Shown in pieces: positions 9,908 to 42,190 of a stretch of 42,190 nt of DNA (positions within the stretch are counted from its first letter, which is position 1; the number at the start of each line of letters is the position of its first letter). This stretch comes from an uncultured Candidatus Saccharibacteria bacterium (GTDB lineage: Bacteria > Patescibacteriota > Minisyncoccia > Phycocordibacterales > PALSA-1337). The stretch spans positions 1-42,190 of the forward strand of contig CAYOER010000005.1 of assembly GCA_964403205.1 (NCBI GenBank), given 5' to 3'. The notes beneath the pieces were generated by a model. That model was not told where the DNA came from and did no database searches. It worked only from the letters and a program-made list of their open reading frames with translations. Both the position numbers and the translations under genes were made by a program.

Positions 9908-9933
9908 GGAGAGATTTTATCATAAAATTCAGC

Positions 9934-9962
9934 TTGACTCTAGTCGTTTGGTTTGCTATATT
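9934..9962 (+). promoter_or_regulatory. Sigma70 promoter divergent from alaS
   Basis: TTGACT (9934-9939), 17 bp spacer, TATATT (9957-9962), with TG at 9954-9955. Confidence 0.55.
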
Positions 9963-10104: not shown

Positions 10105-10515
10105 CTACTTGGAGGAAACGGTGTTGGTGGTTTGGCTGGTGGTAGAAGGTGTAAGGGGTAGAAGAGTTTTGCCATCCCATCTTACCATCGTCCCATTCTC
10201 AAAAGAGAGAAGAAAACTTCCTATGTCAAATCGAAGGGCTCTCAAAGAACCATTTGGACACCTAATGATAATCACAGATTCCAAACTCGTAGTCTTTACT
10301 TGTCCGACGAATTCATAATAAGTTCCTTCACTAAGATTACGATCCATGTCCCCAATTCTTCCCATCGCCGCATAAAAACATAATACTATAACGAAGATAC
10401 CGAGCACAAGACCAATTATAACAGCCCCAGATCTTGCTTTATTGTCTGAAAGAGATGCAATAATCATAATCATAAAGATCACGAGAATGATTCCAAATGA
10501 CAAGTAGTAGTTCAT
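10105..10515 (-). CDS. Hypothetical membrane protein (two N-terminal TM helices)
   Basis: ORF track 10105..10578; the ATG at 10515 (MNYYLSFG) is preferred because GGAAAGGGA precedes it. Confidence 0.65.
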   Translation of the reverse strand: MNYYLSFGIILVIFMIMIIASLSDNKARSGAVIIGLVLGIFVIVLCFYAAMGRIGDMDRNLSEGTYYEFVGQVKTTSLESVIIIRCPNGSLRALRFDIGSFLLSFENGTMVRWDGKTLLPLTPSTTSQTTNTVSSK

Positions 10516-25467: not shown

Positions 25468-25497
25468 CTATCTCCCCATATTATATAACTGTTGTAC
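25468..25497 (-). repeat. Orphan copy of the LamG gene 3' end (encodes VQQLYNMGR*)
   Basis: CTCCCCATATTATATAACTGTTGTAC at 25472-25497 is identical to 26035-26060. Confidence 0.9.
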
Positions 25498-25740
25498 TTA
25501 TTGAGTGTAAAATAGTCTCTTTATTTTTTCTTCATCAAAGCATCTCTCTAAAGATCTAATAATTGATTTGAACGTTCCTCTATCTAGTTCACTGTGCAAT
25601 GGAACAGTTATATAATGAGAAGTAGTAGTAACTTTTTTAACAAGCCTTACATGACTTCCTATCTGTCTTATTTCTGAAAAACCTTCAGAGAGAAGGATTC
25701 TTACAAGTTCTTTACCAGAGATTCTACGGAGTTTAGGCAT
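25498..25740 (-). CDS. hicA: HicA family toxin
   Basis: MPKL..ISGKELVRIL..GF..RQIGSH..TVPLH..L.RGT..SI. Confidence 0.92.
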   Translation of the reverse strand: MPKLRRISGKELVRILLSEGFSEIRQIGSHVRLVKKVTTTSHYITVPLHSELDRGTFKSIIRSLERCFDEEKIKRLFYTQ

Positions 25741-25957
25741 GAGCTATTCGAGAGAAATCCATATTCATCATTATAGGAGGAAAACCATCGGCCTTATTTC
25801 CTAGAATATCGCCCAGACTAACTTCTACTGCTTCCTTTATATTAGAAAGAAGATCTTCGAAGGACTTACCTTGCGTGTATATAGATACATCATCTGCTGA
25901 TGCTATATAGAAACCATCTTCTCCTTTTGAGATTTGGAAAGTTATGATTTTATTCAT
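25733..25957 (-). CDS. HicB-like antitoxin (short, no DNA-binding domain)
   Basis: EDGFYIA...YTQGKSFEDLLSNIKEAV; overlaps the hicA start by 8 nt. Confidence 0.85.
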   Translation of the reverse strand: MNKIITFQISKGEDGFYIASADDVSIYTQGKSFEDLLSNIKEAVEVSLGDILGNKADGFPPIMMNMDFSRIAHA

Positions 25958-26030
25958 TATATTTGTATATTAGCATAGTAGAATATACAAAATCAAGTTA
26001 ATAAAATTACTTTCAACTTTATAACTTCTT

Positions 26031-28121
26031 TTACCTCCCCATATTATATAACTGTTGTACCTCGCTTGCCGATAGCGCGCGGTTGTAGATGCGAACGTCG
26101 TCGAGGGAGCCACCGAATAAACCAGAGGTAGGACCATACCCTATGCCAATATATCTAAATATTATAGCCGTTGTAGATAGACTTGTAATTTGTTCAGAAT
26201 AAACACCATCTTTATATAAAGACAATGTGCCTTGACCATCAGACATTATGGTAATATATTGCCATTTATTTATAACGCTCACTGATGAATTATTTGAAAA
26301 AGATCTGACAGTATAATTAGGAGCACCTTCTCTATATACAAATCTTTTAAACCCGGAGTCTGCCACACCTAAATATTTAAACGTTCCTCCTAGCCCGGTA
26401 AAGGAATTATTTCCACTAACTACACCATTCCAATTCATCCAAGTAGAAAATGTCCATGGTACACTATCACCAAAAGTGATATCACTACTAATGCGTAAAT
26501 AATCATCCCCCCCATCAAACCTCCCCGCCTGCCCCACTTTTCCCTTCGTATAGAAAGTAGAAGAAGCGATATTTATGGGATTACCATGATTACCCTGACC
26601 ACTTTTGTCTCGTATTACTCCATTTACTACATCTTTACCATCGAAGGTCCAATATCCTACTAAACCGCAAGATAATCCTGAAGTACAGTTTGTATTCTTT
26701 ACTGGTTGGGAAGCAGAGACCTTGGAACCGGCGGTACTATTGTATAGTTGAGATACCTCACTTGCTGATAGCGCGCGGTTGTAGATGCGGATGTCGTCGA
26801 TAAGGCCATTAAATGTTCTATCAGTAGTATTTGAATTCCCTATTATCATATTCGTCGTACCCACTTCTGGTGTACCACTATTTTGATTAGCAGAGCCACT
26901 TAATTGACCATTAATATAAAGATTTGCAATCCCAGAACCATTTCTCGTAACAGTCACAAATACCCATTGATTATATGGTAACGAACCGGCTGCTGATTGT
27001 GCATTATTAGTTCCGCCATTACTAGATAAAACAATTATATTTGCTCCTAGACGAAATATTGTCTTGTTATTATCAAAGATACGCCCAGCAACCTGACCAA
27101 TACTTTTTGCATATATCCATGCAGAATATGTACCTGCGGTAGCACCAATTAAATCACTTCCTGTTTTTATTTTGTCATCCCCCCCATCAAACCTCCCAGC
27201 CTGCCCGATCTTCCCCTTCGTATAGAAAGTAGAAGTAGCGATATTTATAGGGTTACCATGATTACCATTTCCACTTTTATCTCTGATTACTCCATTTACT
27301 ACATCTTTACCATCGAAGGTCCAGTAACCCACTAGTCCGCAGGATAGTCCTGATGTACAGTTTCTGTTTTTTACTGGTTGGGAGGCAGAGACCTTGGAAC
27401 CGGCGGTACTATTGTATAGTTGGGATACCTCACTTGCCGATAGCGCGCGGTTGTAGATGCGAACGTCGTCGATCATACCAGAAGAAGGTCCTGAACCACT
27501 ACCTGATGCACCAATAAAAGTTTGAGTTGCTCCTGATGCTGGTGTACCACAGTTCTGGTCGGCAGTACCTGATAAAACACCATTTATATAAATATTGGAG
27601 ACACCACTACCATCTCTTGTAACAAGGACAAATACTTGTCTATTTAAAGGTATTGAATTAGTAGCACTTCTAACATTAGAGGTACAGGAGAATATTAATC
27701 TATTACTAGTTGAATCAACTGAAAATGTTGTATTACCACTTGTATTAGTAGTAATAGTACCACTTTGTTTCTTAGGATTTATCCAAGCTGATACAGAAAG
27801 AGTACCAGTACCTAACATATCAGAATTAATCATAACTCTGTCATCCACCCCATCAAACCTCCCCGCTTGCCCTACCTTACCAATATCATAAAAAGTAGAA
27901 GTAGCGATATTTATGGCATTACCATGATTCCCATTACCACTCTTATCCCTAATCACCCCATTCACCACATCTTTCCCGTCAAATGTCCACCAGCCGACAA
28001 GGCCAGAATTCATAGTAAGGGCATTACTAGGAACACCGATACTAGAAGCCAGGGCATGATCAGGATACAGAAAAAAAGCAGAGAAAATAATAGACAATAA
28101 AATAATCTTTGCAGATTTCAT
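26031..28121 (-). CDS. Secreted protein with three LamG-like (ConA lectin jelly-roll) domains
   Basis: Signal peptide; three copies of GLVG[WY]WTFDG...DD[VI]RIYNRALS. Confidence 0.9.
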   Translation of the reverse strand: MKSAKIILLSIIFSAFFLYPDHALASSIGVPSNALTMNSGLVGWWTFDGKDVVNGVIRDKSGNGNHGNAINIATSTFYDIGKVGQAGRFDGVDDRVMINSDMLGTGTLSVSAWINPKKQSGTITTNTSGNTTFSVDSTSNRLIFSCTSNVRSATNSIPLNRQVFVLVTRDGSGVSNIYINGVLSGTADQNCGTPASGATQTFIGASGSGSGPSSGMIDDVRIYNRALSASEVSQLYNSTAGSKVSASQPVKNRNCTSGLSCGLVGYWTFDGKDVVNGVIRDKSGNGNHGNPINIATSTFYTKGKIGQAGRFDGGDDKIKTGSDLIGATAGTYSAWIYAKSIGQVAGRIFDNNKTIFRLGANIIVLSSNGGTNNAQSAAGSLPYNQWVFVTVTRNGSGIANLYINGQLSGSANQNSGTPEVGTTNMIIGNSNTTDRTFNGLIDDIRIYNRALSASEVSQLYNSTAGSKVSASQPVKNTNCTSGLSCGLVGYWTFDGKDVVNGVIRDKSGQGNHGNPINIASSTFYTKGKVGQAGRFDGGDDYLRISSDITFGDSVPWTFSTWMNWNGVVSGNNSFTGLGGTFKYLGVADSGFKRFVYREGAPNYTVRSFSNNSSVSVINKWQYITIMSDGQGTLSLYKDGVYSEQITSLSTTAIIFRYIGIGYGPTSGLFGGSLDDVRIYNRALSASEVQQLYNMGR

Positions 28122-28256
28122 GGGTAAATTATAGCATGAAAATATAATAAAATAACTTTATAACTTTTTACTTTATAACTTCTTTTACCTCCCCATATTA
28201 TATAACTGCCGTACCTCTGTTGCCGATAGCGCGCGGTTGTAGATGCGGATGTCGTC
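28085..28256. repeat. Duplicated gene junction (gene end, ACTTT tandem, promoter, next start); second copy at about 34432-34610
   Basis: Near-identical TAGACAATAAAATAATCTTT..GATTTCAT..ATTATAGCATGAAAATATAATAAAATAACTTT.. at both sites. Confidence 0.85.
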
Positions 28257-30389
28257 CATGAGACCATTAGAAGTACGACTTCCAGCAGTATTTCCACCAA
28301 TAATAGCTGCACTTGCACTATCATCACTACGTGTCCCAATAGGCGTAATAGCTGTTGGTAATTGATAAAATATTCCATCAATATAAAGAGAGGGGACATT
28401 GGTAGTATCATCAGAATTGTAACTCAAAACAATATGGTGCCATTTATTGAATGAAATAGGCGGAGTTGTGCCGTTATATTTCCATTTACCCGTATTACCC
28501 GAAAATGTAACATTAAATTCAAACCCTGTTTCTCCTACGAAATGACTAGAAAAAGCAAAGAGAACCCAATTCTTACCAATCCAAAAACCTGCTTCACCTT
28601 CTCCTGCAGATTTCGGATTTACCCAATATGATATCGTACCACCACCATCCCAAATATTTTGTATAGAAGATGTATTGGAAATAGTAATATAATCATCCCT
28701 CCCATCAAACTTCAACCCCTGCCCGACCTTCCCTGCCTTCACCGCTGTAGATGTAGAAGTGAAACCGATCATAGCACCATTATTACCATTACCACTTTTA
28801 TCTTTTACATTCTGTATCATATCCGGCCCATCGAATGTCCACCAGCCGACAAGACCTTGATTGAGATTGCTGGGGCCAGGAAAAGAGATATTTTGTTTAC
28901 CAGATTTACTACTATCATAGACTTTCTTTATTTCAGTGGCAGACAGAGCCCTATTATATACTCTTATATCATCTAGATATCCATACCAATTCCCATTACC
29001 TTGATCATCACGCGCACCGAGTACAGAAGCTCCACCGGGAGAGTCAGTATTGGTACTTGTTGCAATAGAAAGTCCATCTTTATATAGATCTACATTATTA
29101 CCATCAAAGACATAGCAAACATGTACCCATGTATTATTGCTAAATACTGCAGAACTAGACTGGGAACCTTTCGCTGTTGCTCCAGAACGATAAGAGACAA
29201 ATAATTTACCATCATTTACTATACTCCCCATACGTATACCATTACTAGCATCAATATAGAAATTCAAGAATGTCTGATTCCATCCTGCAGGAGAAACTGT
29301 CAGATCTTTATTATATGCCCATGCACAGGATGAACTTGGATTACTAACTGTTGTTATTGGATTAGAAATTAGACCGATAGAAGTGACATTACCGTCAAAG
29401 GTAAGTGCCTGACCTACCTTACCTTGTCTCACTACAGTAGAAGTCGCTCCGAAATATTGGAAATATCCATGCTTGCCATTACCACTGGTGTCTCTGACAT
29501 TCGGTGTTAGATTTGCCCCATCGAAGGTCCAATATGCTACTAGATTATTATTTATACTATCAAAACTTGATGGGGTATTTATTTTGCTACCTTTGGTGGC
29601 ATTATAAAGTTGAGCAATTTCTTGGGCACCTAGTGCGCGGTTGTAGATGCGGATGTCGTCTATTGTTGCATTAGCGAATGCTGAAGCGTCATTATTAGTC
29701 CCAATCTTAAGAGGTGTACTGATGTTCGTATTAAGTGCTCCTCCTGTCCCATTAGTAGTAGCTTTCTGTACGCCATTAATATAGACATACGAGGCAGGGT
29801 CGTTATACATAACAACTACATGTGTCCATTGACCTAGTGGTATTGGGCAAGTAGCGGAGTTACAATTAATATCTAGCTGACTACCCCCAGTTCCAGAACC
29901 TCCATATCTCCAAATAGTTGCTATATCAAAAAAACTGCTACCGTATACACTGAATAATCTCCCTGTGCTTCCACTGTTACGATAAATAAAGTGACCCGTC
30001 TTATTATTATTTTTAACCCAAAAAGCTATGGTAGCCCCACTTGCACCTTCTAGGGAATCAAGGGCACTCGAATCAGGCGCATCCACATAATCATTACTAC
30101 CATCAAACTTTAGTGCCTGCCCGACCTTACCCGTAACCACCGCACTAGAAGTAGAAGTGAAACCAATCATAGAACCATGATTACCATTACCACTTTTATC
30201 TTTTACATTACTTATCATATCCGGCCCATCGAATGTCCACCAGCCGACTAGACCTTGATTGAGATTATTGGGACCAGGAAGTGAGGAGTTTATACCACTA
30301 GCAGAAAGGGCGATGGAAGGTAATAGGAGTATTGCTATAAAGACAATACTAGATTGTATTAAATATTTCAAAATAAAATTATTCCCCAT
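28185..30389 (-). CDS. Secreted protein with three LamG-like domains
   Basis: Signal peptide; three copies of WTFDG...DDIR[IV]YNRAL. Confidence 0.9.
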   Translation of the reverse strand: MGNNFILKYLIQSSIVFIAILLLPSIALSASGINSSLPGPNNLNQGLVGWWTFDGPDMISNVKDKSGNGNHGSMIGFTSTSSAVVTGKVGQALKFDGSNDYVDAPDSSALDSLEGASGATIAFWVKNNNKTGHFIYRNSGSTGRLFSVYGSSFFDIATIWRYGGSGTGGSQLDINCNSATCPIPLGQWTHVVVMYNDPASYVYINGVQKATTNGTGGALNTNISTPLKIGTNNDASAFANATIDDIRIYNRALGAQEIAQLYNATKGSKINTPSSFDSINNNLVAYWTFDGANLTPNVRDTSGNGKHGYFQYFGATSTVVRQGKVGQALTFDGNVTSIGLISNPITTVSNPSSSCAWAYNKDLTVSPAGWNQTFLNFYIDASNGIRMGSIVNDGKLFVSYRSGATAKGSQSSSAVFSNNTWVHVCYVFDGNNVDLYKDGLSIATSTNTDSPGGASVLGARDDQGNGNWYGYLDDIRVYNRALSATEIKKVYDSSKSGKQNISFPGPSNLNQGLVGWWTFDGPDMIQNVKDKSGNGNNGAMIGFTSTSTAVKAGKVGQGLKFDGRDDYITISNTSSIQNIWDGGGTISYWVNPKSAGEGEAGFWIGKNWVLFAFSSHFVGETGFEFNVTFSGNTGKWKYNGTTPPISFNKWHHIVLSYNSDDTTNVPSLYIDGIFYQLPTAITPIGTRSDDSASAAIIGGNTAGSRTSNGLMDDIRIYNRALSATEVRQLYNMGR

Positions 30390-30411
30390 CCCCTAATTAT
30401 ATCATATTCAC

Positions 30412-31275
30412 TTATTTCTTAATCATCGCCACTTTATACATTCCCTCTTTTTCTGCTAGATATATTTCTCTGGCTTGGGATACTGTGAATGCTTTTTTAT
30501 ATACACGAATATTATCTAAATAATATCTATTCGTAGGACCTCCGACTAATGAGCTACCTAATATATATAAATTATTTGAATTATAATGACAAACTCCATC
30601 AGTGAAACTAGAAAAATTAGTAACTTGTTTACCATTAATATACATAGCTACTTTATTATTATCACATACTGCCATAACATGATACCATTGATTAATTTTT
30701 ATAGGAAAACTTGGAAGTGGTGGTGAAAGTACTACTCCAGATGAAGATACAGTAGTAAATACTAAATTACTACTACTATCCATATAGAATCTCCAACGTC
30801 CAGGAATAGTATTTATAAAAAGGTTAGAAAGATATTCTATACTATTTGTACCTGTAGTATTTATCCAAAAAGAAACAGAATAAATATTTGTTGGCCCTCC
30901 AATTATAAGAGAAGGAGATGAAGCAGTTTTACCACTATCACCCGAAACAGATATTACTTTACCAATTTTAAATGGGTTTGTAGTATTAGTAATAATTCCT
31001 GGGTTAACTAAAAAGAGATTGTTTCCATTCCCTGTTTGATCTATTATATTATTAGAACCATCATGACTATCAAATTCCCAAGAAAGTACTAGATCATCAT
31101 TCCATGCAGAATATGTATGAGTATCGAATGTCTGCCCAGCTGCCACACCACTCCTCTCTCTAGTACCAGATAGACTAGCTAGAACAACAGAAGAGAGTAG
31201 ACCTATAATAGAAATTACTACGAGTAATTCTATGAGGGTAAAGGCGCGAGAATGTTTATAAGATATCTTTATCAT
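30412..31275 (-). CDS. Type IV pilin-like protein fused to a LamG domain
   Basis: Class III signal RA/FTLIELLVVISIIGLLSS; C-terminal WYHVMAV...LDNIRVYKKA. Confidence 0.88.
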   Translation of the reverse strand: MIKISYKHSRAFTLIELLVVISIIGLLSSVVLASLSGTRERSGVAAGQTFDTHTYSAWNDDLVLSWEFDSHDGSNNIIDQTGNGNNLFLVNPGIITNTTNPFKIGKVISVSGDSGKTASSPSLIIGGPTNIYSVSFWINTTGTNSIEYLSNLFINTIPGRWRFYMDSSSNLVFTTVSSSGVVLSPPLPSFPIKINQWYHVMAVCDNNKVAMYINGKQVTNFSSFTDGVCHYNSNNLYILGSSLVGGPTNRYYLDNIRVYKKAFTVSQAREIYLAEKEGMYKVAMIKK

Positions 31276-32171
31276 TATTTATTATTTATCTTTCCATTAT
31301 CTCCTATTGCCAGATTATCAAATTTATCTTTTTCTGCTAAATATAATTCTTCTGCCATAGCAACAGTGAATGCTTTATTATAAATACGAACATTATCTAC
31401 ATAATATGGAAAAACACTGCCATTAAGAAGTCTTGCATTCATTATAATAGGAACAGTGGATAAATAACTACAATTACCACCAGAAGATAGTAATTTGGAA
31501 TCTGTAGCTACTTTACCATTCACATATAAAGTACCTTTTGTACCGTTACATACTGCCATTGCATGATACCATTGCCCTGACTTTATTAATATTTGAGGAA
31601 CAGACGGAGAAAAACCAGAATTAATATTGGATCTAGCTAAGAAAGATAATTTTCCGCCGTCTTGTATAGAGATCATCCATTTCCCAGCTGCTAAAGGAGA
31701 GTAGAAATTGGAAATTATTTCAACACTACCAAACTCACCACCTCTTGGATATATCCAAAGCGAAATAGAAAAATCATTAACTATGGGAGTAGGACTATTT
31801 ATTGGACTACCGGTAACTGCAGTTTTGCTTGTATTTACAATATCTAATACCTTTCCATTCTTAAAAGGATTATAATTACTATCAGTAACTAGAGAAGTAG
31901 TATCCGTAAGTGTAAGATTATTCCCATTCCCCGTCTGATCTTGCACCGTAGTACCACTATCGGTATCGAAGTCCCATGCAAGAACAAGATCCTCATACCA
32001 TGCACCATATGTATGTCTATCGAATGTCTGCCCAGAAGCTAGAGTACCCTTTTCCCTAACACCAGAAAGAGTTGCGAGGATAATGGATGATAGCATACCT
32101 ATAATAGATATAACCACAAGCAATTCTATAAGGGTAAAGGCTTTCGATGAATTATTTTTATCTATTTTCAT
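31275..32171 (-). CDS. Type IV pilin-like protein fused to a LamG domain
   Basis: KA/FTLIELLVVISIIGMLSS; WYHAMAV...VDNVRIYNKA; paralogue of the neighbouring gene. Confidence 0.88.
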   Translation of the reverse strand: MKIDKNNSSKAFTLIELLVVISIIGMLSSIILATLSGVREKGTLASGQTFDRHTYGAWYEDLVLAWDFDTDSGTTVQDQTGNGNNLTLTDTTSLVTDSNYNPFKNGKVLDIVNTSKTAVTGSPINSPTPIVNDFSISLWIYPRGGEFGSVEIISNFYSPLAAGKWMISIQDGGKLSFLARSNINSGFSPSVPQILIKSGQWYHAMAVCNGTKGTLYVNGKVATDSKLLSSGGNCSYLSTVPIIMNARLLNGSVFPYYVDNVRIYNKAFTVAMAEELYLAEKDKFDNLAIGDNGKINNK

Positions 32172-32284
32172 TTCTCTATATTCAATTTATTGATAATTAT
32201 AGCATAAACATTATCTATATCTATATAATATTTCCACAGATTGTATTACTTTATAACTTTTTACTTTATAACTTTATAACTCTT

Positions 32285-34468
32285 TTACCTCCCCTGATTA
32301 TATAACTGCTTCACCTCGCTTGCCGACAGCGCGCGGTTGTAGATGCGGACGTCGTCGATGGTGCCATCTTGATTCTGTGTGCTTACAGAAATAGCTCCTA
32401 TTCTTATATTATATGAACCAGAGACAGGAGTCCCGGAATTTTGATTGGCTGTACCAACTAAAATACCATTTATATAAAAATTAGCTTGATTACTATTATT
32501 TCTTGTAACAGTTACGTGATACCAAGTATTAAGTAATAATGAATTTGTCCCAGAATGAGATGTTGTAGTAAAATTATTACTAGAAAATTCTAATCGCTTA
32601 TTAACACCGACAGTACGAAAAATTGTACTCCCATTAGTTAAAATCTGTCCAATAGAAACAAAAGATTTTAAATATATCCATGAAGAAATGGTCACATCAG
32701 TTGTACTAATTACAGATGATGATGTTTGAACATAGTCATCCCCCCCATCAAACCTCCCCGCCTGACCGATCTTACCCGGCACATAGAAAGTAGAAGTAGA
32801 GATACTGATTGCATTACCATGATTACCATTTCCACTTTTATCTAGCACTACGCCATTGTTCATATCTTTCCCATCGAAAGTCCAATAACCGACTAGTCCA
32901 CAGGAGAGTCCTGTGGTGCAGGAGGTTGGGCCGACCTTGGGAGAGGAGGCTTGCTTGGTTGCTGCACCCATATTGTAAAGGTAGGTGATTTCACTTTGGG
33001 AGAGGGCACGCATATAAAAACGTACATCATCTATTTTACCATCATGATAACTAGAACCACATCCATTGATAGCACCTATACAAGGTGAAAATGAACTATC
33101 TAATACAATATCTGATATAGCACCAGAATTAGATGAACTTATAACACCATTAATATATAAAAATACATTTGTACCCTGCCTTACAGCAATAACATGCGTC
33201 CATTTCCCAGTCGTTAAAGTGTTCGTTGGAGTTGTAGCTGCTACTGTCGCAATTCCGTAGTCTGTTATAGTAAAACTTAACCTATTCAGTGTACTTACAA
33301 TTATACTCGCAGAATCTCCCGAAGCAACTTTGTCATCATATAGAGCAGAACCAAATGCTACTCTATCATAAAACATCCATCCTGCTATAGTAAAATCTGA
33401 AGTACCTGGTGATAACTTAGGACTACTAGACGGTAATTTCACACCATCGTTTACCCCGTCAAAATTTACCGCCTGCCCCAGCTTACCTGGCGCATAGAAA
33501 GTAGAAGAAGCGATATTTATAGGGTTCCCATTATTCCCATTTCCACTTTTATCTAGCACTACACCATTACGCATATCCTTCCCATCGAATGTCCAATAAC
33601 CGACTAGGCCACAAGATAGTCCTGAAGTGCAGGAGGTTGGGCCGACCTTGGGAGAGGAGGCTTGCTTGGTAGCTGCACCCATATTGTAAAGGTAGGTGAT
33701 TTCTGATTGAGTGAGGATGCGGTTATAGATGCGAACATCATCTAGACCAGCATCTAGGTAATCCGATATTCCATTTGCACTACCAAGCATTAAATTACCG
33801 GATTCATCGGAATTTGCTGTTGCTCCATCTGTAGCAGATAAATTTGTCTGTAAAACTCCATTTCTATAGACCACAACACCAGTAGATAAAGTCATAGAAC
33901 CATCCCAAGTAAGGACTATATGTTGCCAAACATTATTGACTAATAAACTATTATAATTTTTAGAGGAGTCTGTGCCACCCTCTTTTGCGAAGCGCAAGCG
34001 TGCTGGATTTGTAGTAGAATTCTTTTGTATTTGCCAATATCCAGTACCATTTGAAGCTGCCCCTTTCTGGATTATGCTATTAATAGTATTCGTATCTGGT
34101 CTAATCCAAAAAGCCACAGTCATACCTCCTCCACCTTGACTCTGTATATCATCAAGTGATGAACCTGTGCCTGCATTGATATAATCATTACTACCGTCAA
34201 ATTTTAGTCCTTGTCCTATTTTCCCAGGTTTATAGAAAGTAGAAGTAGAGATACTGATTGCATTACCATGATTACCATTTCCACTTTTATCTAGCACTAC
34301 GCCATTGTTCATATCTTTCCCGTCAAAGGTCCAATAACCGACTAGGCCAGAACTGAGAGAAAGAAGATTGGGAGAAACACCGATCTTGGAAGCAGAGGCG
34401 GTGTGGGGGGAAAAGAAAAAAGTGAAAAAGAAAATAGTAGACAATAAAATAATCTTTACAGATTTCAT
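32285..34468 (-). CDS. Secreted protein with three LamG-like domains
   Basis: Signal peptide; three copies of GLVGYWTFDGKDM...DDVR. Confidence 0.9.
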   Translation of the reverse strand: MKSVKIILLSTIFFFTFFFSPHTASASKIGVSPNLLSLSSGLVGYWTFDGKDMNNGVVLDKSGNGNHGNAISISTSTFYKPGKIGQGLKFDGSNDYINAGTGSSLDDIQSQGGGGMTVAFWIRPDTNTINSIIQKGAASNGTGYWQIQKNSTTNPARLRFAKEGGTDSSKNYNSLLVNNVWQHIVLTWDGSMTLSTGVVVYRNGVLQTNLSATDGATANSDESGNLMLGSANGISDYLDAGLDDVRIYNRILTQSEITYLYNMGAATKQASSPKVGPTSCTSGLSCGLVGYWTFDGKDMRNGVVLDKSGNGNNGNPINIASSTFYAPGKLGQAVNFDGVNDGVKLPSSSPKLSPGTSDFTIAGWMFYDRVAFGSALYDDKVASGDSASIIVSTLNRLSFTITDYGIATVAATTPTNTLTTGKWTHVIAVRQGTNVFLYINGVISSSNSGAISDIVLDSSFSPCIGAINGCGSSYHDGKIDDVRFYMRALSQSEITYLYNMGAATKQASSPKVGPTSCTTGLSCGLVGYWTFDGKDMNNGVVLDKSGNGNHGNAISISTSTFYVPGKIGQAGRFDGGDDYVQTSSSVISTTDVTISSWIYLKSFVSIGQILTNGSTIFRTVGVNKRLEFSSNNFTTTSHSGTNSLLLNTWYHVTVTRNNSNQANFYINGILVGTANQNSGTPVSGSYNIRIGAISVSTQNQDGTIDDVRIYNRALSASEVKQLYNQGR

Positions 34469-34538
34469 AACTAGATTATAGCATGAAAATATAATAAAAT
34501 AACTTTCAACTTTATAACTTTTTACTTTATAACTTCCC

Positions 34539-36788
34539 CTACCTCCCCATATTATATAACTGCTTCACTTCACTTGCCGATAGCGCGCGGTTGTAGATGC
34601 GAACGTCGTCGAGGGAGCCGTTAAAATTTCGAGAATTGGCACTTACATTAGCGCCGATATGTGCTGATGAAGTAGTATCTGACACTATGTTACCAACACC
34701 ATCAGTTGGACTTGTGTATGCTGTTTCAACTCCATTAATATAAAATTTTATTCCTGTAGCATCTGCAGTACCATCCCATGTCATTGTAAAATAAGTCCAT
34801 TTATTTAAAGGTATAGCATTCACAGTTGATACAACTCTACTTAGATTAGTTGCGCCATCATAATCACGATAAAACCATGGGGTTAGTATTCCAGAGGAAC
34901 CAGCGCTATCTATTGATAAAAACCAACCATTCAATCCAAAACCAGTACTTTTCTCCATTATATATCCAGTATTATTAGACCCAGAACTTTTTGGGTATAC
35001 CCAAGAACTTATGGTAATAGCAGGCAAATCATTGAGACTACTAGGTGTACCAGCATTCACATAATCATTCGTTCCATCAAACCTCCCCCCCTGCCCCAAC
35101 TTCCCCTGAGTATAGAAAGTAGAAGTAGAAATGTTAATTAAATTTCCATTATTACCATTTCCACTTTTATCTAAAATTACACCATTACGAATATCTTGAT
35201 TATTGAAGGTCCAGTAGCCGACTAAGCCTGAGTCTAGTGAATTGACATTAGGTCTTAATGCTTGAGTTTCTTGGAGTTTAGTACCTGCGCCTTGCATATA
35301 TAGTTGCTTGATTTCTGAAGTAGACAGGGCGCGGTTGTAGATGCGGACGTCGTCGATAGAACCGTCAAATACTCTTGAACCACCAGCTACATTATTACCG
35401 ATGATCATATTCCTAGCGACATCAGTTACACGACTTGCATCTCCATCTGTCTGTGTAGAGTAGGTTTGTTCTACACCATCCTTATAAATATGAACATTTG
35501 TTGCAGTAGTGCTACCATCCCATGTTACAACTAAATGAACCCATTTATTAAAATTAGAAGTTGAAAATGTAGCAGAAGAAGTACGAACAACAAGATTTGT
35601 CACATCATAATCCACATTAAATTCTATTGTTCCACTTAAAGTTGAGCGGATATAAAATTCCCAGCCATTCGCATCGAAACCAGTTGATTTTTCTACTATA
35701 CCGCCAAGACTAGTCCCTCCAAATGATTTTGCATTTACCCATGCTGATATAGACATAGCTGACAAATTATTGAGACTACTAGGTGTACCAGCATTCACAT
35801 AATCATTCGTTCCATCAAACCTCCCTGCCTGCCCCAACTTCCCCTGAGTATAGAAAGTAGAAGAAGCGATACCAATTGGATTACCATGATTACCATTTCC
35901 ACTTTTATCTAGTATTACACCATTACGGATATCTTGATTATTGAATGTCCAGTAGCCGACTAGGCCTGAGTCTAGTGAATTGACATTAGGTCTTAATGCT
36001 TGAGTTTCTTGGAGTTTAGTACCTGCACCTTGCATGTAGAGTTGTTTGACTTCGGAAGCAGATAGAGCGCGGTTGTAGATGCGGACGTCGTCAATAATAC
36101 CATTAAACCTAGTATCATTATTTCCACGCTCTCCAATATGAAGGTCTCTGCCATTACTTACATACTGTGCCAATGGAATACCTGTAGTATTTTGTCCAAT
36201 AGATACACCATTTTTATAAATCTCTAAAGATACAGACGGAGTAAAAACTGCTACATAATGATTCCAAATATCATTATTATGTAAATCATTTACCGTAAGA
36301 GAAATGGTTTCGGTACTGCTAGTAGCGATGGTGAATGCTACATCATTACTATTGTTAATTCCAAAACTATATCCTCTAGTGGAACTCCCCCCTTGTGTTC
36401 CCAAACTACCAGTCGTAGCACTTGAACCTTTTCCTTTCAACCAAACTGAAATAGTCATGGCTCCTGTCGGCTTGAAAGAAGGATCGTTAGAAACATTCAC
36501 AACATCATCCCCCCCATCAAACTTCCCCCCTTGCCCCAGCTTTCCCTGAGTATAGAAAGTAGAAGAAGCGATATTTATTGCATTACCATGATTACCATTA
36601 CCACTTTTATCTCTAATTACACCATTTACTACATCATTGCCATCGAAACTCCAATACCCTACTAGACCATTCGTAAGAGACATAACATTTGGTGATACGC
36701 CGATAGTCGTGCCGGCGGAGGCGGTATGGGGAAAGGAGAAAAGGCTAATAAAAAATATAAATATTATTAAAGTAAGGTTTTTATTCAT
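34539..36788 (-). CDS. Secreted protein with three LamG-like domains
   Basis: Signal peptide; three copies of GLVGYW...DDVRIYNRALS. Confidence 0.9.
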   Translation of the reverse strand: MNKNLTLIIFIFFISLFSFPHTASAGTTIGVSPNVMSLTNGLVGYWSFDGNDVVNGVIRDKSGNGNHGNAINIASSTFYTQGKLGQGGKFDGGDDVVNVSNDPSFKPTGAMTISVWLKGKGSSATTGSLGTQGGSSTRGYSFGINNSNDVAFTIATSSTETISLTVNDLHNNDIWNHYVAVFTPSVSLEIYKNGVSIGQNTTGIPLAQYVSNGRDLHIGERGNNDTRFNGIIDDVRIYNRALSASEVKQLYMQGAGTKLQETQALRPNVNSLDSGLVGYWTFNNQDIRNGVILDKSGNGNHGNPIGIASSTFYTQGKLGQAGRFDGTNDYVNAGTPSSLNNLSAMSISAWVNAKSFGGTSLGGIVEKSTGFDANGWEFYIRSTLSGTIEFNVDYDVTNLVVRTSSATFSTSNFNKWVHLVVTWDGSTTATNVHIYKDGVEQTYSTQTDGDASRVTDVARNMIIGNNVAGGSRVFDGSIDDVRIYNRALSTSEIKQLYMQGAGTKLQETQALRPNVNSLDSGLVGYWTFNNQDIRNGVILDKSGNGNNGNLINISTSTFYTQGKLGQGGRFDGTNDYVNAGTPSSLNDLPAITISSWVYPKSSGSNNTGYIMEKSTGFGLNGWFLSIDSAGSSGILTPWFYRDYDGATNLSRVVSTVNAIPLNKWTYFTMTWDGTADATGIKFYINGVETAYTSPTDGVGNIVSDTTSSAHIGANVSANSRNFNGSLDDVRIYNRALSASEVKQLYNMGR

Positions 36789-36797
36789 TTAATAAAA

Positions 36798-37226
36798 TTA
36801 AATATTTTTAGATTTCAAATATATTTTGATACAATCTACATACTTTTCATATAATGGTACAAACTCTTTTGCTGAATTATAAAAAATAAAATTATCTTCA
36901 TCAAAATCGTATTCATGTATTAAAACATTTCTAAGATTAGAACTTTTTATGAATTTTGGCAATAAGTCTTCTTCTAAGACTTTTAATGATGCCATTCTTT
37001 TGAAAGATTCTCTATATGTATCAGGTGTTTCTGCTCCCATCTCCGCAATTATATGAGTATTTATATCGCTAGCGATTTCTACAATCAATTGGAAATTCCT
37101 TTCTGCAGAGCGGATATTAGTAAATATTTTTTTAAATTCAGAAAAAGGCAATACTAAAAGTTGATTTAATTCAATCAATAATACCTTCATTTGTTCTAGC
37201 TTTTTTAGTATCAGATCATGCGACAT
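36798..37226 (-). CDS. HEPN/DUF86 (HepT-like) ribonuclease toxin
   Basis: AERNFQL.VE...DI..H and the R-X4-H motif in RNVLIHEY. Confidence 0.9.
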   Translation of the reverse strand: MSHDLILKKLEQMKVLLIELNQLLVLPFSEFKKIFTNIRSAERNFQLIVEIASDINTHIIAEMGAETPDTYRESFKRMASLKVLEEDLLPKFIKSSNLRNVLIHEYDFDEDNFIFYNSAKEFVPLYEKYVDCIKIYLKSKNI

Positions 37227-37569
37227 AATTTTCTAATATTACACGCTCACGCATACGACGGAATTTTGCAGTATCCTGATATTCCTTAAAGGATCTTACC
37301 TTGAATCTAATAAAATCATATACATCACCTTCTATCAATTTACCTTTCTTTGCAACTTCAAATTTCAATATTGGCGATGCAGTAGAGAGATCAACAAGAT
37401 CGATTTTATCTTCATTGATATTAAACTTTTTTGATAAAAAATGAGATAAATCTGTACGTGAAGCAAGGGTTAATGGATTATAAGAAAAAACTCCAAAATC
37501 AAAATCTGAAGTAGATATTGCCCTACCAGAAATCTGAGAACCAAATGCTATTATAATCGGTTTTTTCAT
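37216..37569 (-). CDS. Minimal nucleotidyltransferase (MntA-like) antitoxin
   Basis: FGSQISGRAISTSDFD (GS-X10-DXD) and IDLVDL; overlaps the HEPN gene; start could be 37584 or 37605. Confidence 0.88.
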   Translation of the reverse strand: MKKPIIIAFGSQISGRAISTSDFDFGVFSYNPLTLASRTDLSHFLSKKFNINEDKIDLVDLSTASPILKFEVAKKGKLIEGDVYDFIRFKVRSFKEYQDTAKFRRMRERVILENYVA

Positions 37570-37591
37570 ATTATATATTTGCATTATACCA

Positions 37592-38197
37592 TTATTCCTC
37601 CTCATTTACCACCTCCTCTTCCTGATCAAACACCTCTTCTTGACTGACAGCACTATTGACAGCACTAGTATCGAATTTCCAGCTAGAAAGCACGGCTTTT
37701 AGAACTTCATCATATTTTATATATGTACGGATCTGATACAGATTCCTATTGAGGACGAACCATACCTCCCTACTCCTACCGTCAAAGGCACTATCATTGC
37801 TGATAAAAGCTACACCTTTACCTGCATCTCCGAGTATAACATCTTGTGGAGATTCTATGAGTAGATTAGGTAGATCCTTCCTTATCCTCTCTACTGTCAG
37901 AGCTGGTATGTCCTCATCTATAGGGCTGATACTCACCTGGAAACCTTTACCTGTAGTTATCTCCTGTACCACTATATTTTCCATTCCATCTTCTGTAGTG
38001 AATGATGATGCAGAGAATGAACTAGGATAATCAAAAGTGAAATTCAATGTTGGATGACTATATGTCTCTGTTGTTGTAGCAATAGTAGATAATGTGGATT
38101 CAGCTGGTAGGAAAGCATCTTCTTTTTTATTTATAAAATATGCTATTCCTATTACGATGATGATTATAATTATTATGAATTTTATCTTTTTTGACAT
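37592..38197 (-). CDS. Membrane-anchored PsbP-like hypothetical protein
   Basis: N-terminal TM; TYSH..LNFTFDYP and C-terminal VLSSWKF pattern; acidic tail. Confidence 0.6.
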   Translation of the reverse strand: MSKKIKFIIIIIIIVIGIAYFINKKEDAFLPAESTLSTIATTTETYSHPTLNFTFDYPSSFSASSFTTEDGMENIVVQEITTGKGFQVSISPIDEDIPALTVERIRKDLPNLLIESPQDVILGDAGKGVAFISNDSAFDGRSREVWFVLNRNLYQIRTYIKYDEVLKAVLSSWKFDTSAVNSAVSQEEVFDQEEEVVNEEE

Positions 38198-38237: not shown

Positions 38238-41200
38238 TTAGGGTGTCGGTGCAGACTCAGGTGCCGGTGCAGGTGCAGGAGCAGGAGCTGGTTCTGGGGT
38301 AGGAGCTGGTACTGGCTCTACTGGAACTGGCTCAATAACAGGTGCCGGTACTGGATCAGCAACGGGCTCTACAACAGGTGTTGATTCTGGAGCTGGTTCT
38401 ACTAGAGCTGGAGTGGAATCCACAGGTGCTGGAATAGGATCTACGGGCGCTGATACAGGAGTGGAAGTAGCTGGAGTAGCTGGAGTGGATGTAGCTACAG
38501 GATCTGAAACTGGTATTATAACTTGTGCAGTCTCAGGTACTATAGCGGGTGCTACGGCAGGAGCTGATGCAGGAGTGGATGTAGAGGATGTAGTAGATGA
38601 TGCACTGACTCCACCAGCACTTATTAGCAAGCTCTTCAATTGCTCTTTATTTATACATACATCATCTACACAGAGCTTCTCTTCTATATGCAATTCTTTT
38701 ACAAATATTCCCTTTATACTAGTCATAGCAGATGATAGGAAATCCATAAATGAACTGAATATTTTACTTAATATAGGTGTAGATGAAGCGATAGCATCAG
38801 CAGTAGTAGAGGCAATAGAATCCAATATTGTTGTTGAAGCGAATAGATTCAATGTATTCTCATTTATAAGATCAATAGTAGTTGAAGAAAGATTATTTAT
38901 TCTATCATTTAGTCCTACTATAGCTAGATTAGTATTCTTCATTGAAGCTGTCAATTCTCCCAATGATGCTTCTGTACTATTCCTCGATGTGAATAGCAAT
39001 TCTGCTGTAGATGAAGCTAGAATATCGACATATTCAGAAAGCGAATTTATATCTTTACCGAAACATTGATTACCCTGATAACATACATCGCCAGCTAGGG
39101 AAATATTACCCTTCTCATCAATAGTCATCACATCCTCACTTTTTTGATTTCTCAATAATAGTCCTTGTGTAGAGCTTGCACTGAGCGGAGCCTCAGTAAA
39201 GGTGAAATTGTTTGCAAAGATCAAGTCACCAGCATAGGAATTCGTAGCGCGAAATGTACCATTTACATATAGATTACCATTAATTGTAGATGTTGCATTA
39301 TTTGAATCTGTAGTTGAGGCTGTGAATATACCATTATTTAGTATTTTGAATAATGTACTTGAAGCACTATTGACTACTTCGAATGTACCTTCTGTACCAG
39401 TACCATTACCGAATATTGTAAGCTTCGATGATGGTGGAGTACTACTACCGATAGAGATTCTAGGGTAATCATTCATAAGATTTCCATTACCAGCAGAGAG
39501 ACCATAGACCATGATAGTTGTACTACCATTGAGTGATGCAGTGTAACCTTGTGGTGTTCCTTCAGGAGCACTTTCAAGTAATAGATCTGTCCATGTGACC
39601 ATACCGGCATCTGTATCAAATTCCATATTTCCTGTTGTTAATGAATCTATAGAAGTGATACCTGTTGAGAAGTCATAGACTAATGAGCCATTGCCAACAT
39701 TTAACCCTCCCGCAAAAGTAGAAGTAGCGGTTGTAGATGTAGCGTGGAAGTATTCTGCTACTACTGGGCCGACTACAGATAGCTTTGCATATGGGGATGT
39801 GGTACCGATACCTACATTACCTATATTATCTATATGAATACGAGTGGCATTAGCAGTTTGAAAGGCCATATATTCATTAACACCAGAACCTGAACCAGAT
39901 ATTCTAGATGATCCTGCATTTCCAAATTGATAACCACTACCGGATGACACACGAACATAACCATTAACATCTAGAGCTACGGCTGGATCCGCTGTCCCTA
40001 TCCCCACATTCCCACCATTCGTAACAATAAAGTTTGTAGCTGTAGAAGAACCAATTGCAAATGCTGGACCAGTTATACCATTTGGATTAATTGAAAGTTG
40101 TGCCCATGGAGTGGTGGAACCTACACCCAAATTACCACCATTTGCCATACGGAAACGCTCTGTTCCAGATGTAAAGAATTTTATATTTCCTGCACTTGTA
40201 TAGTAATTTATATCATTACGTGAAGTTCCGACACGATCAATTGCCTCAATAATAACTCCATTATATGCACCATTTGAACTTCCTGAAATTGTGAAGCTAG
40301 CATTATTATCTACAACCTCAAATTTTGCACCTGGATTAGTTGTCCCCACTCCCACATTCCCATTCTTATCAACAATAAACTGTGTACCCGTAGATGAACC
40401 TACAGCAAATGCAGGTGAACCAGCTACACCAGATACAGCTAGCTGTGCCCATGGAGTGGTGGAACCTACTCCAACATTCCCATTTTCCTGTACCTGGAAT
40501 ACAGTAGTAGAAGCATTATTGACAAGAGCTAATAGATTAGCAGTACCAGTTCCCTCACCCCATACAGTGAGTTTAGAATAAGGGGTCGATGTACCGATAG
40601 CTACTCCTATGCTTCCTGGTTTTGTATATCCATTACCATCCGTCTGACCATATAGAGTAAGTGTAGTACTACCCATAAGATCGAAGCTATATGATTCTAC
40701 TGTGCCATCATCTGGAGTATCTGTAATAGGTAGATCAAGTGCTGTAACTATACCCGCATCAGTATCTAGATTAAGATTTCCAGTCTGTACGGAACCGATA
40801 GATGTGATACCTGTATATGAATCATAAACAAGTCCCCCATTTCCTACATCAAGCCCTCCTGCAAATGTAGACGTAGCAGTAGTAGATGTAGCATGGAAGT
40901 ATTCTGCTACTACTGGACCGACTACAGATAGTTTTGCATATGGGGATGTGGTGCCGATACCTACATTACCTTCTGCATTCCATATACCACTACCTGGGAA
41001 GAAGGCAGCACTGGAGACAGAGAGTGCTGTAGTTGAACCATATGTGAATGCTAGATTAGCTGTAGTATTGTTCCATGTGAATGCAGATGAGTCTATGAGG
41101 AAGCCACCTGTACTTGCAAATGGTACTCTACCAGAAGTTAGAGATGAAATCGATATACCAGTAGTAGATGCATATGGGAAAGTGGAAGCTGTAGAGGATG

Positions 41201-42190
41201 TTGATATGAAATATGATGAACGGACATAGTCATCAAATACTCCAATACCCGCTACTCCGAGTAGAGCGTATGGTGATGTTGTACCAATACCGACATTCCC
41301 TGCATCTTGTATTACAAATCTTGTAGTACTAGCTACATCTGATACTGCAAATGCATAACTTGTAGCACTAGTAGTAGTACCTGCTACAGATAGTGTAGCC
41401 CATGGGGATGTGGTACCGATACCTAGACGGAGATTCTTTGCATTACCTGATCCATCTGCTTCTCCATATACTGTGAATACTGGGAGACCGCCGATATTGG
41501 CGGTGTAGGCTTCTGGAGTACCAGCTATAGCATTACTATCAAGTGGCAGATCTGTCCAAGAAACTATTCCAGCATTTGTTTCAAAGTTTAATGATCCAGT
41601 CTGAAGTCCAGTTATAGATGTTATACCAGTATAGTAGTCATAAACAAGTCCCCCATTTCCTACATCAAGCCCTCCAGCTAGAGTAGACGTAGCAGTAGTA
41701 GATGTAGCATGGAAGTATTCTGCTACTACTGGACCGACTACAGATAGTTTTGCATATGGGGATGTGGTGCCGATACCTACATTACCTTCTGCATTCCATA
41801 TACCACTACCTGGGAAGAAGGCAGAGCTAGAGACAGTAAGTGCTGTAGTAGATGCATATGGGAATGTAGATGCTGTAGAAGATGTAGCTGTGAAGTATGA
41901 TGCTGTTACATTATTCCCTGCCCAGATATCAGATGAAGCGTATATAGATGAAGAAGCAAATAGATTATTCTGTATCCATAGTGCTGTAGTGGTAGAGTTG
42001 GTATTTATTCCATAGTTAGTAGCTGGTGTCCAAGCGAAAGATACAGATGATGGCCATGATGTTCTACAGTCAGTGGTGATACAGATAGTGGTAGCGGAGA
42101 GAGCTGTGGTGGAGGCGTAGGGGAAGGTAGAAGCAGTAGAGGATGTTGATATGAAATATGATGAACGGACATAGTCATCAAATACTCCAA
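38238..42190 (-). CDS. Giant repetitive surface/fibre-like protein, partial (over 1300 aa; start lies beyond the window)
   Basis: The frame of ORF 38238..40676 stays open without a stop to 42190 (read codon by codon); GNVGIGTTSP repeats, ICITTDCRTSWP motif, Pro/Ala-rich tail. Confidence 0.88.
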   Translation of the reverse strand, partial: GVFDDYVRSSYFISTSSTASTFPYASTTALSATTICITTDCRTSWPSSVSFAWTPATNYGINTNSTTTALWIQNNLFASSSIYASSDIWAGNNVTASYFTATSSTASTFPYASTTALTVSSSAFFPGSGIWNAEGNVGIGTTSPYAKLSVVGPVVAEYFHATSTTATSTLAGGLDVGNGGLVYDYYTGITSITGLQTGSLNFETNAGIVSWTDLPLDSNAIAGTPEAYTANIGGLPVFTVYGEADGSGNAKNLRLGIGTTSPWATLSVAGTTTSATSYAFAVSDVASTTRFVIQDAGNVGIGTTSPYALLGVAGIGVFDDYVRSSYFISTSSTASTFPYASTTGISISSLTSGRVPFASTGGFLIDSSAFTWNNTTANLAFTYGSTTALSVSSAAFFPGSGIWNAEGNVGIGTTSPYAKLSVVGPVVAEYFHATSTTATSTFAGGLDVGNGGLVYDSYTGITSIGSVQTGNLNLDTDAGIVTALDLPITDTPDDGTVESYSFDLMGSTTLTLYGQTDGNGYTKPGSIGVAIGTSTPYSKLTVWGEGTGTANLLALVNNASTTVFQVQENGNVGVGSTTPWAQLAVSGVAGSPAFAVGSSTGTQFIVDKNGNVGVGTTNPGAKFEVVDNNASFTISGSSNGAYNGVIIEAIDRVGTSRNDINYYTSAGNIKFFTSGTERFRMANGGNLGVGSTTPWAQLSINPNGITGPAFAIGSSTATNFIVTNGGNVGIGTADPAVALDVNGYVRVSSGSGYQFGNAGSSRISGSGSGVNEYMAFQTANATRIHIDNIGNVGIGTTSPYAKLSVVGPVVAEYFHATSTTATSTFAGGLNVGNGSLVYDFSTGITSIDSLTTGNMEFDTDAGMVTWTDLLLESAPEGTPQGYTASLNGSTTIMVYGLSAGNGNLMNDYPRISIGSSTPPSSKLTIFGNGTGTEGTFEVVNSASSTLFKILNNGIFTASTTDSNNATSTINGNLYVNGTFRATNSYAGDLIFANNFTFTEAPLSASSTQGLLLRNQKSEDVMTIDEKGNISLAGDVCYQGNQCFGKDINSLSEYVDILASSTAELLFTSRNSTEASLGELTASMKNTNLAIVGLNDRINNLSSTTIDLINENTLNLFASTTILDSIASTTADAIASSTPILSKIFSSFMDFLSSAMTSIKGIFVKELHIEEKLCVDDVCINKEQLKSLLISAGGVSASSTTSSTSTPASAPAVAPAIVPETAQVIIPVSDPVATSTPATPATSTPVSAPVDPIPAPVDSTPALVEPAPESTPVVEPVADPVPAPVIEPVPVEPVPAPTPEPAPAPAPAPAPESAPTP
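40822..41008. repeat. Internal 187-bp direct repeat in the giant gene (copy at 41638-41824; partial copy about 39707-39821)
   Basis: Near-identical DNA encoding FFPGSGIWNAEGNVGIGTTSPYAKLSVVGPVVAEYFHATSTTATST. Confidence 0.88.

Follow-up and report, generated by a model that had tools for sequence, protein, structure and literature searches.

We analysed a window of 42,190 nucleotides (nt) from an uncultured, ultrasmall Candidatus Saccharibacteria bacterium of groundwater (contig CAYOER010000005.1 of assembly GCA_964403205.1, a genome of 729 kb in 43 contigs, 93.7% complete). The window carries four genes that each encode three LamG domains, and our subject is the DNA that borders the variable core of these domains. 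All four genes lie on the minus strand: gene A (34539..36788; 749 amino acids, with a signal peptide-like start), gene B (32285..34468; 727 amino acids), gene C (28185..30389; 734 amino acids), and gene D (26031..28121; 696 amino acids). Two pilin-LamG genes lie within the array on the same strand (30412..32171). A fifth triple-LamG gene is found on contig C19 (5600-7720), alone within a ribosomal protein operon between rplE and rpsN/rpsH; in G295 (L243), a LamG gene adjoins rplC.

The 15 domains of the five triple-LamG genes share one plan: a conserved N-terminal block (53-91% DNA identity), a core of ~400 nt, a DDVRIYNRA motif, and a tail. The cores are ~40% identical between domains and have a third-position GC content (GC3) of 0.16, like the genome. 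The tails that follow DDVRIYNRA fall into several classes. The domain is LamG_3 (PF13385), with a Pfam match above cut-off and a beta-sandwich fold. Both protein family and fold match the LamG/concanavalin A-like family (PF13385; PDB 4qvs, 5hon), of whose definition the DNA-level features described below are not part. Fold matches to the clostridial neurotoxin HcN domain (13-21% identity) reflect a shared lectin fold only.

A preliminary description of this DNA, made from the letters alone, had pointed to a GC-rich 17-mer at the 3' border of nine of the 12 domains. The count was right, and all nine copies are exact and on the minus strand (chance expectation 0.01). They lie at 36067..36083, 35329..35345, and 34585..34601 (domains A1, A2, and A3, the last at the gene end), at 32331..32347 (B3, gene end), at 29635..29651 and 28231..28247 (C1 and C3, the latter at the gene end), and at 27445..27461, 26773..26789, and 26077..26093 (D1, D2, and D3, the last at the gene end). 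The other three domains carry decayed versions on the same strand: B1 at 33717..33733 with 3 mismatches, B2 at 33005..33031 with AT-rich codons (a position derived from the offset), and C2 at 28947..28973, where the AT-rich equivalent noted earlier was confirmed. Genome-wide, the exact 17-mer occurs 11 times and a 1-mismatch version once, always within a LamG domain: nine of the 11 are in the window, and the other 2 and the 1-mismatch copy are in the fifth gene on C19. One match with 2 mismatches lies outside LamG, on contig C1.

The codons of the 17-mer are rare in this genome, as had been claimed (CGC 0.06, ATC 0.13, TAC 0.15, AAC 0.10, GAC 0.14), and next-base context leaves these frequencies unchanged. 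Under genome usage the shared codons have a probability of 6.9e-6 per copy. Among the 12 domains with the motif, only one codon differs over all of the D, D, R, I, Y, N, and R positions. An even, recent duplication is ruled out because the cores are only ~40% identical while the motif is 89-100% identical among these 12 domains; identity at synonymous positions is uneven along the domain. The N-terminal block also has invariant synonymous codons (Ser AGT 15/15, Ser TCT 15/15, Gly GGG 10/10, Arg AGG 9/9), and its positions are conserved less tightly than those of the motif. Conservation at the DNA level is tightest at the 17-mer and is not confined there. Elsewhere in the class, 21 of 400 other genomes carry the exact 17-mer (control 0). 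It was found in 0 of 24 genus relatives (one draw), though the domain family is present in 32 of 44. A GTDB scan returned at least 130 motif-bearing stretches, 80 of them listed; they were selected by the motif, so no frequency follows. Viral contigs gave 4 matches to a 26-nt pattern, which are not informative.

The 17-mer proved not to stand alone but to be one half of a mirror pair, a point that the preliminary description had overlooked. Third codon positions favour G in the box immediately 5' of each core (GKxGQAGxFDGG, the G-box) and C in the one immediately 3' (LDDVRIYNRALS, the C-box, which holds the 17-mer). The coding strand is G-rich in the 5' box and C-rich in the 3' box, so that both strands pointing into the core are G-rich. 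In gene A, the G-boxes lie at 36510..36545 (A1, reading GKxGQxGxFDGG), 35808..35843 (A2), and 35070..35105 (A3). Gene B has the weakest of all, with the lowest G score, at 34190..34225 (B1, whose C-box is decayed too), a weaker one at 33452..33487 (B2), and another at 32741..32776 (B3). Those of gene C are weak at 30096..30131 (C1) and 29388..29423 (C2), followed by 28698..28733 (C3), and those of gene D are at 27846..27881 (D1), 27180..27215 (D2), and 26508..26543 (D3). All are on the minus strand, and the boxes of A1, A3, C3, D2, and D3 match a G-quadruplex (G4) pattern. The domains of the two pilin-LamG genes have neither box. Ranked for clustered third-position C and G, the five triple-LamG genes take places 1-5 among 266 long open reading frames (ORFs). 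The sixth place falls to an ORF at 38238-42190 of the window; this region and C15:3-8756 encode giant repeat proteins in which the STFPYASTT repeats are C-rich and some GNVGIG repeats G-rich at third positions, and the polarity may reach other shuffled repeats.

The mirror polarity was also found in relatives. Among 18 of them (17 from the genus and 1 from the order), C was above the core level in the right-hand box of 15 and G in the left-hand box of 16, whereas the off-polarity combinations were raised less often (left-hand C in only 9, right-hand G in 11). In 14 class genomes without the 17-mer, chosen by protein profile, third-position C was 0.66 in the motif versus 0.35 in the core, and G was 0.52 in the G-box versus 0.34; C in the G-box was raised too (0.42). 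Five non-Patescibacteria genomes, reached via the motif and scored without their exact copies, showed the polarity in 4 cases; the fifth, G460, showed the G-box only. We also compared 231 domains without the 17-mer, in three GC classes, with cores matched for amino acid, first two bases, and next base. G in the G-box was 2.39, 1.80, and 1.44 times expected (C 1.05, 1.16, and 0.92), and C in the motif was 2.47, 2.80, and 1.57 times expected (G 1.28, 0.82, and 0.77). These domains are kin and partly neighbours of motif matches, so the counts are not independent. The matched comparison rules out a codon-context effect as the cause of the bias.

The two boxes vary together. Across 45 genomes their scores co-vary after core GC3 is removed (partial rho 0.63). 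In this genome, three of the four weakest G-boxes belong to the three domains that lack the motif (p 0.009), and the boxes are coupled core by core (rho 0.71 over n 19, four of them single or pilin domains). A literature search that covered few subscription journals found no published account of mirror polarity, which we regard as the most interesting part of the finding.

What lies between the boxes is replaced. Over its 403 bp (26104..26506, minus strand), the D3 core does not differ from that of the fifth gene's middle domain. The identical tract begins right behind the G-box, one base past its last G run, and stops 11 nt before the 17-mer. The flanks differ: ~307 nt upstream contain 38 differences (~88% identical), and the downstream tails are unlike. 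A metagenome contig from a close strain, L223, matches gene C at 94% over 1593 nt with a different core 1. Homology is lost near 30085, ~10 nt 3' of the C1 G-box, and returns around the C1 17-mer as a 19-nt island of identity with differences on both sides. Further on, identity is 100% from 28994 onward, 22 nt before the decayed C2 motif. On a second contig, L222, the neighbour gene is 92% identical and LamG matches are limited to the junction blocks.

A comparison of 348 distinct domains gave six within-genome pairs whose cores are 84-100% identical and which diverge 30-90 nt past the DD codons; three cross-genome pairs remain alike on both sides. Contigs of four groundwater runs contain joints from 28259 to 29694 and from 29624 to 34579 (among the 15 joints listed, of 53). 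Loose contig ends also pile up at the motif; this is expected for any conserved motif at 85% likeness, and we did not count them as breakpoints. Overall, right-hand breakpoints range from about -30 to +45 of the Arg codon (~75 nt), with no fixed crossover position of the kind that defines an att site. These comparisons of assembled sequence show that cores are exchanged between paralogues and between strains, with tracts ending in or next to the boxes. The idea of a nucleic acid-level constraint tied to recombination is thereby upheld, since exchange tracts end near the motif; the idea of a fixed recognition or cut site is not, since the breakpoints scatter around no fixed base.

The 3' box also appears at the edge of inserted modules. 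A HicA toxin gene (identified by Pfam) and a 74-amino-acid upstream partner, which we read as probably HicB-like and which has no Pfam match, occupy 25498..25957 (minus strand) as a passenger between two gene-tail copies. One copy is the tail of gene D itself (26035-26060); the other is a non-coding, exact 26-bp copy at 25472..25497 on the same strand, directly after the HicA stop codon. An MNT-HepT-like pair lies directly upstream of gene A (36798..37605, minus strand), and a close relative has other toxin-antitoxin modules in that region. In L222 and G056, the motif and tail recur in non-coding DNA right after MNT-HepT and PemK-like genes. Recurrence in non-coding DNA supports a constraint on the DNA itself.

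We surveyed regions from 17 of the 21 class genomes with the 17-mer. Spare motif copies were present in 9 of the 17, after AbiEii, PIN, Fic, HicB, ParE-like, PemK, GIY-YIG, and Y1-transposase-like genes. With G323 left out, because its match is the spare copy, the count is 8/16 versus 1/14 controls (Fisher p 0.017). This excess is suggestive only, because the G178 and G381 loci are near-identical and several control regions stop at contig ends. In the genus regions, spare copies occurred only in G056. We read 18 spare copies by eye: about half start at -20 to -23, which is where protein conservation starts, and the others at -2 to -13 or further 3'. Short inserts at differing positions interrupt 5 of the copies clearly and 3 probably. 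Hairpin-like inserts lie at L227:12639-12751, L228:480-570, L231:1380-1503, L232:1990-2096, and L255:10775-10892, one of them flanked by a 7-nt duplication of the motif end. Similar Fic genes of 351 amino acids follow LamG tail copies in two different families (L228:1418-2473 and L241:10901-11956), suggesting that passengers move between families.

Taken together, these results show that the constraint on the 17-mer is real and linked to recombination. In our judgement the boxes probably act as homology anchors for RecA-type replacement of the core, and a strand-biased step in this exchange would yield the polarity. The DNA of DDVRIYNRA would be the 3' anchor, and that of GKxGQAGxFDGG with the preceding N-terminal block the 5' anchor. 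Exchange would proceed by RecA-type gap repair or gene conversion, with a paralogue or DNA acquired by competence as donor. Where the core is broken or gapped, pairing would fall to two 3' tails, one on the coding strand (left flank) and one on the template strand (right flank); these are exactly the G-rich strands. A G on the pairing strand would accept either pyrimidine opposite, so that pairing would be wobble-tolerant, and copies bearing G on the pairing strands would exchange more often and so spread. That the 17-mer is the tightest part would reflect its invariant peptide and a tract common to all tail classes. Domains that leave the exchange, such as B1, B2, and C2, would drift back to genome codons. 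A single crossover would bring toxin-antitoxin and similar modules that carry one anchor-and-tail copy into gene ends, with a spare copy left behind. The likely benefit would be new glycan-binding cores for attachment to the host.

Several known facts fit the anchor model. RecA, RuvB, ComEC, and an AddAB-type nuclease are present in the genome; MutS, a tyrosine recombinase (PF00589, 0 matches), and a Y1 transposase were not found in this 93.7% complete genome. RecA filaments are described as more stable on TG-rich DNA, which RecA prefers (PMC3763553), a preference that may contribute to the bias. Natural competence is shown in Saccharibacteria only (PMC10633639).

A number of observations weigh against the anchor model. 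Coupling of the boxes per core is not significant within other genomes (rho 0.11, p 0.19, n 144), and per junction there is none (rho -0.02, n 86). The bias extends to single LamG domains of giant proteins (motif C 0.40 versus core 0.24), so it is not confined to tandem genes. Several genus relatives with AT-rich boxes keep diverse arrays, and G018 among them shares cores. The shortest homology reported to work in Saccharibacteria, as far as the available text of PMC10633639 goes, is 221 bp, far above the 26-70 nt of the right anchor. The exchange is seen in contig data only and was not caught in progress; joints at 85% likeness can stem from other organisms, and assembly could account for part of the D3 core identity. 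The 93.7% complete assembly may lack a dedicated enzyme. Finally, the model predicts only the sign of the bias.

If the anchors work as proposed, core replacement between short coded anchors offers a concrete, testable route by which Patescibacteria could vary their host-binding surface proteins. Mirror polarity would be a readable footprint of the pairing strand and could flag shuffled modules in other repeat proteins. A broader reading, which we consider rather unlikely, is that a pair of inward-pointing G-rich recombination signals in the coding sequence of a widespread bacterial lectin domain forms a built-in cassette system, directing the replacement of ligand-binding cores and building integron-like arrays of unrelated defence modules without an integrase, across species and phyla. 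The same literature search, with its limited reach into subscription journals, found no published description of such an exchange system.

The best surviving alternative, which we still think unlikely, is that the boxes are selected cis-acting signals. The G-box would seed a G-quadruplex or R-loop that nicks the core border, and the C-box would mark where the tract resolves. Of the 12 matches to the G4 pattern in the 729-kb genome, 7 are LamG G-boxes; the pattern occurs in 7 of the 15 domains versus 0.04 expected from genome codons, and G4Hunter scores of at least 1.2 occur in 12 of 15 versus 1.1 expected. The start of the D3 tract one base behind the last G run fits as well, as do the oriented G4 that pilE is reported to require (PMC3547852) and the strand-specific G runs reported in vls (PMC3585125). 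However, the G4 pattern occurs in 0/38 and 0/52 class-level domains and in 6/69 genus tandem domains, where the polarity is present nonetheless, and the template strand of the C-box is always below the G4 threshold. Were the boxes selected signals, they would be recombination sites within conserved protein motifs, common to several phyla.

Somewhat less likely again is a neutral relic, in which the boxes retain the codons of GC-richer donors because incoming DNA renews the flanks and GC-biased conversion evens them out. These codons are often used in class genomes of 41-53% GC, the occurrence of the exact 17-mer in 21 of 400 class genomes would fit, and both C and G are elevated in the N-terminal block that precedes the G-box. 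Yet GC bias alone lifts C and G alike, whereas in all three GC classes the G-box lifts G only and the C-box almost only C. The same polarity also holds in four genomes of other phyla. A relic is refuted as the sole cause, barring a donor whose polarity arose for another reason.

Selection on the message, through cognate or slow codons at domain ends or through RNA structure, is improbable. The anticodons of the tRNAs detected (Asn gtt, Tyr gta, Ile gat, Arg gcg) do fit the C-ending codons, and STFY and the G-box can be folded on paper into a weak pyrimidine-purine RNA hairpin (z +1.7 to -3). Against this, the 19 genes of the ribosomal-protein cluster favour T-ending codons, a preference that rules out optimal codons as such, and Asp, Asn, and Tyr of the left flank and conserved core residues remain T-ending. 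The motif gives no folding signal (z 0.39, 1.16, and 1.51 in whole folds; sliding folds against synonymous shuffles were likewise null at motif and junction). In the 231 domains the boxes do not covary in any specific register (48% paired in the best 8-nt diagonal), and the motif persists in non-coding copies. The genome has a tRNA-Arg with anticodon GCG, with no ACG found, and a tRNA-Ile with TAT that matches heavy ATA use. Pairing between G-box and C-box was rejected too: as RNA, own pairs reach -26.8 versus -25.4 kcal/mol for pairs with other domains (z +1 to -2).

That a site-specific recombinase or homing nuclease has the 17-mer at the core of its target, as the exact sharing of the 17-mer across families, the bracketing of passenger arrays by motif copies, and a GIY-YIG gene preceding one spare copy might suggest, is very improbable, because the 5' edges of the 18 spare copies scatter from about -23 to +18 of the Arg codon by eye (+35 in this genome), breakpoints scatter likewise, there is no palindrome, the exact 17-mer is missing from the genus relatives drawn, no tyrosine recombinase or Y1 transposase was found in this genome, and its sole large serine recombinase lies on another contig among phage-like ORFs with no motif nearby. 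That enzyme (577 amino acids) belongs to a region, C2:25816-33948, that is possibly an integrated element. A Chi or DNA-uptake word was rejected, because with LamG regions masked no 5-8-mer of the boxes is among the top over-represented words. So was a diversity-generating retroelement, because the template/variable pair of the sole reverse transcriptase, on C7, has no match to the LamG genes. The retroelement (C7:8498-10945) comprises the reverse transcriptase, a template repeat (9832-9951), and a variable repeat (10194-10313) in a target of 240 amino acids; an ORF on C13 (12523-13296) has a C-terminus similar to this target.

Two further features were recorded. The intergenic DNA behind each triple-LamG gene of the window (28128-28185, 32260-32285, 34470-34539, 26000-26031) contains a promoter-like element, TGnTATAAT, and short AAAGTTAT-type repeats in tandem; a 7-nt unit is absent from some contigs. 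A 59-nt palindromic insert in the leucyl-tRNA synthetase ORF (window 19300-19358) is 85% like an ORF insert at C7 11704-11762, and both are in frame.

How does the LamG arrangement compare with known systems? Integron arrays consist of short modules, many of them toxin-antitoxin pairs, with a repeated site after each. The LamG loci resemble them in that ORF modules rich in toxin-antitoxin pairs are each followed by a repeated site (in relatives, with one remnant in the window). They differ in that an integrase was not found in this genome, the one searched for it, and in that the repeat is a protein-coding gene end with a variable 5' edge and no hairpin. The element e14 integrates into the 3' end of icd in E. 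coli and leaves a displaced copy. Here too the gene end is restored and a spare 3' fragment lies downstream of the passenger, but the passengers are many and unrelated, come without an integrase and with no fixed crossover base, and the tract is also used inside genes.

Within the genes, the likeness is to systems in which a variable region is swapped between conserved flanks, as was found here. Borrelia vlsE likewise has a variable cassette between the conserved flanks of a surface protein gene, G runs that are strand-specific and oppose an AT-rich codon bias, and RuvAB (PMC3585125). It differs in having one expression site and silent cassettes, whereas all 15 domains here lie in five intact ORFs and none seems to be a silent, promoterless cassette; its cassettes are ~90% identical, against ~40% for our cores, and its polarity is one-stranded, whereas ours is mirror-symmetric around each core. 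Neisseria pilE has a G4-capable sequence at the edge of the converted region, to which the G-boxes with a G4 pattern may correspond, and it too involves homologous recombination and a competent organism (PMC3547852). As described there, it has a single non-coding G4 with its own small RNA, whereas the G-boxes here are coding, one per domain, and their G4 pattern is limited to some lineages. The LamG arrangement resembles segmental gene conversion in the way it works, and at the ends of genes it resembles an integron array, yet it belongs to neither class, because silent cassettes, a hairpin, and (in this genome) an integrase were not found.

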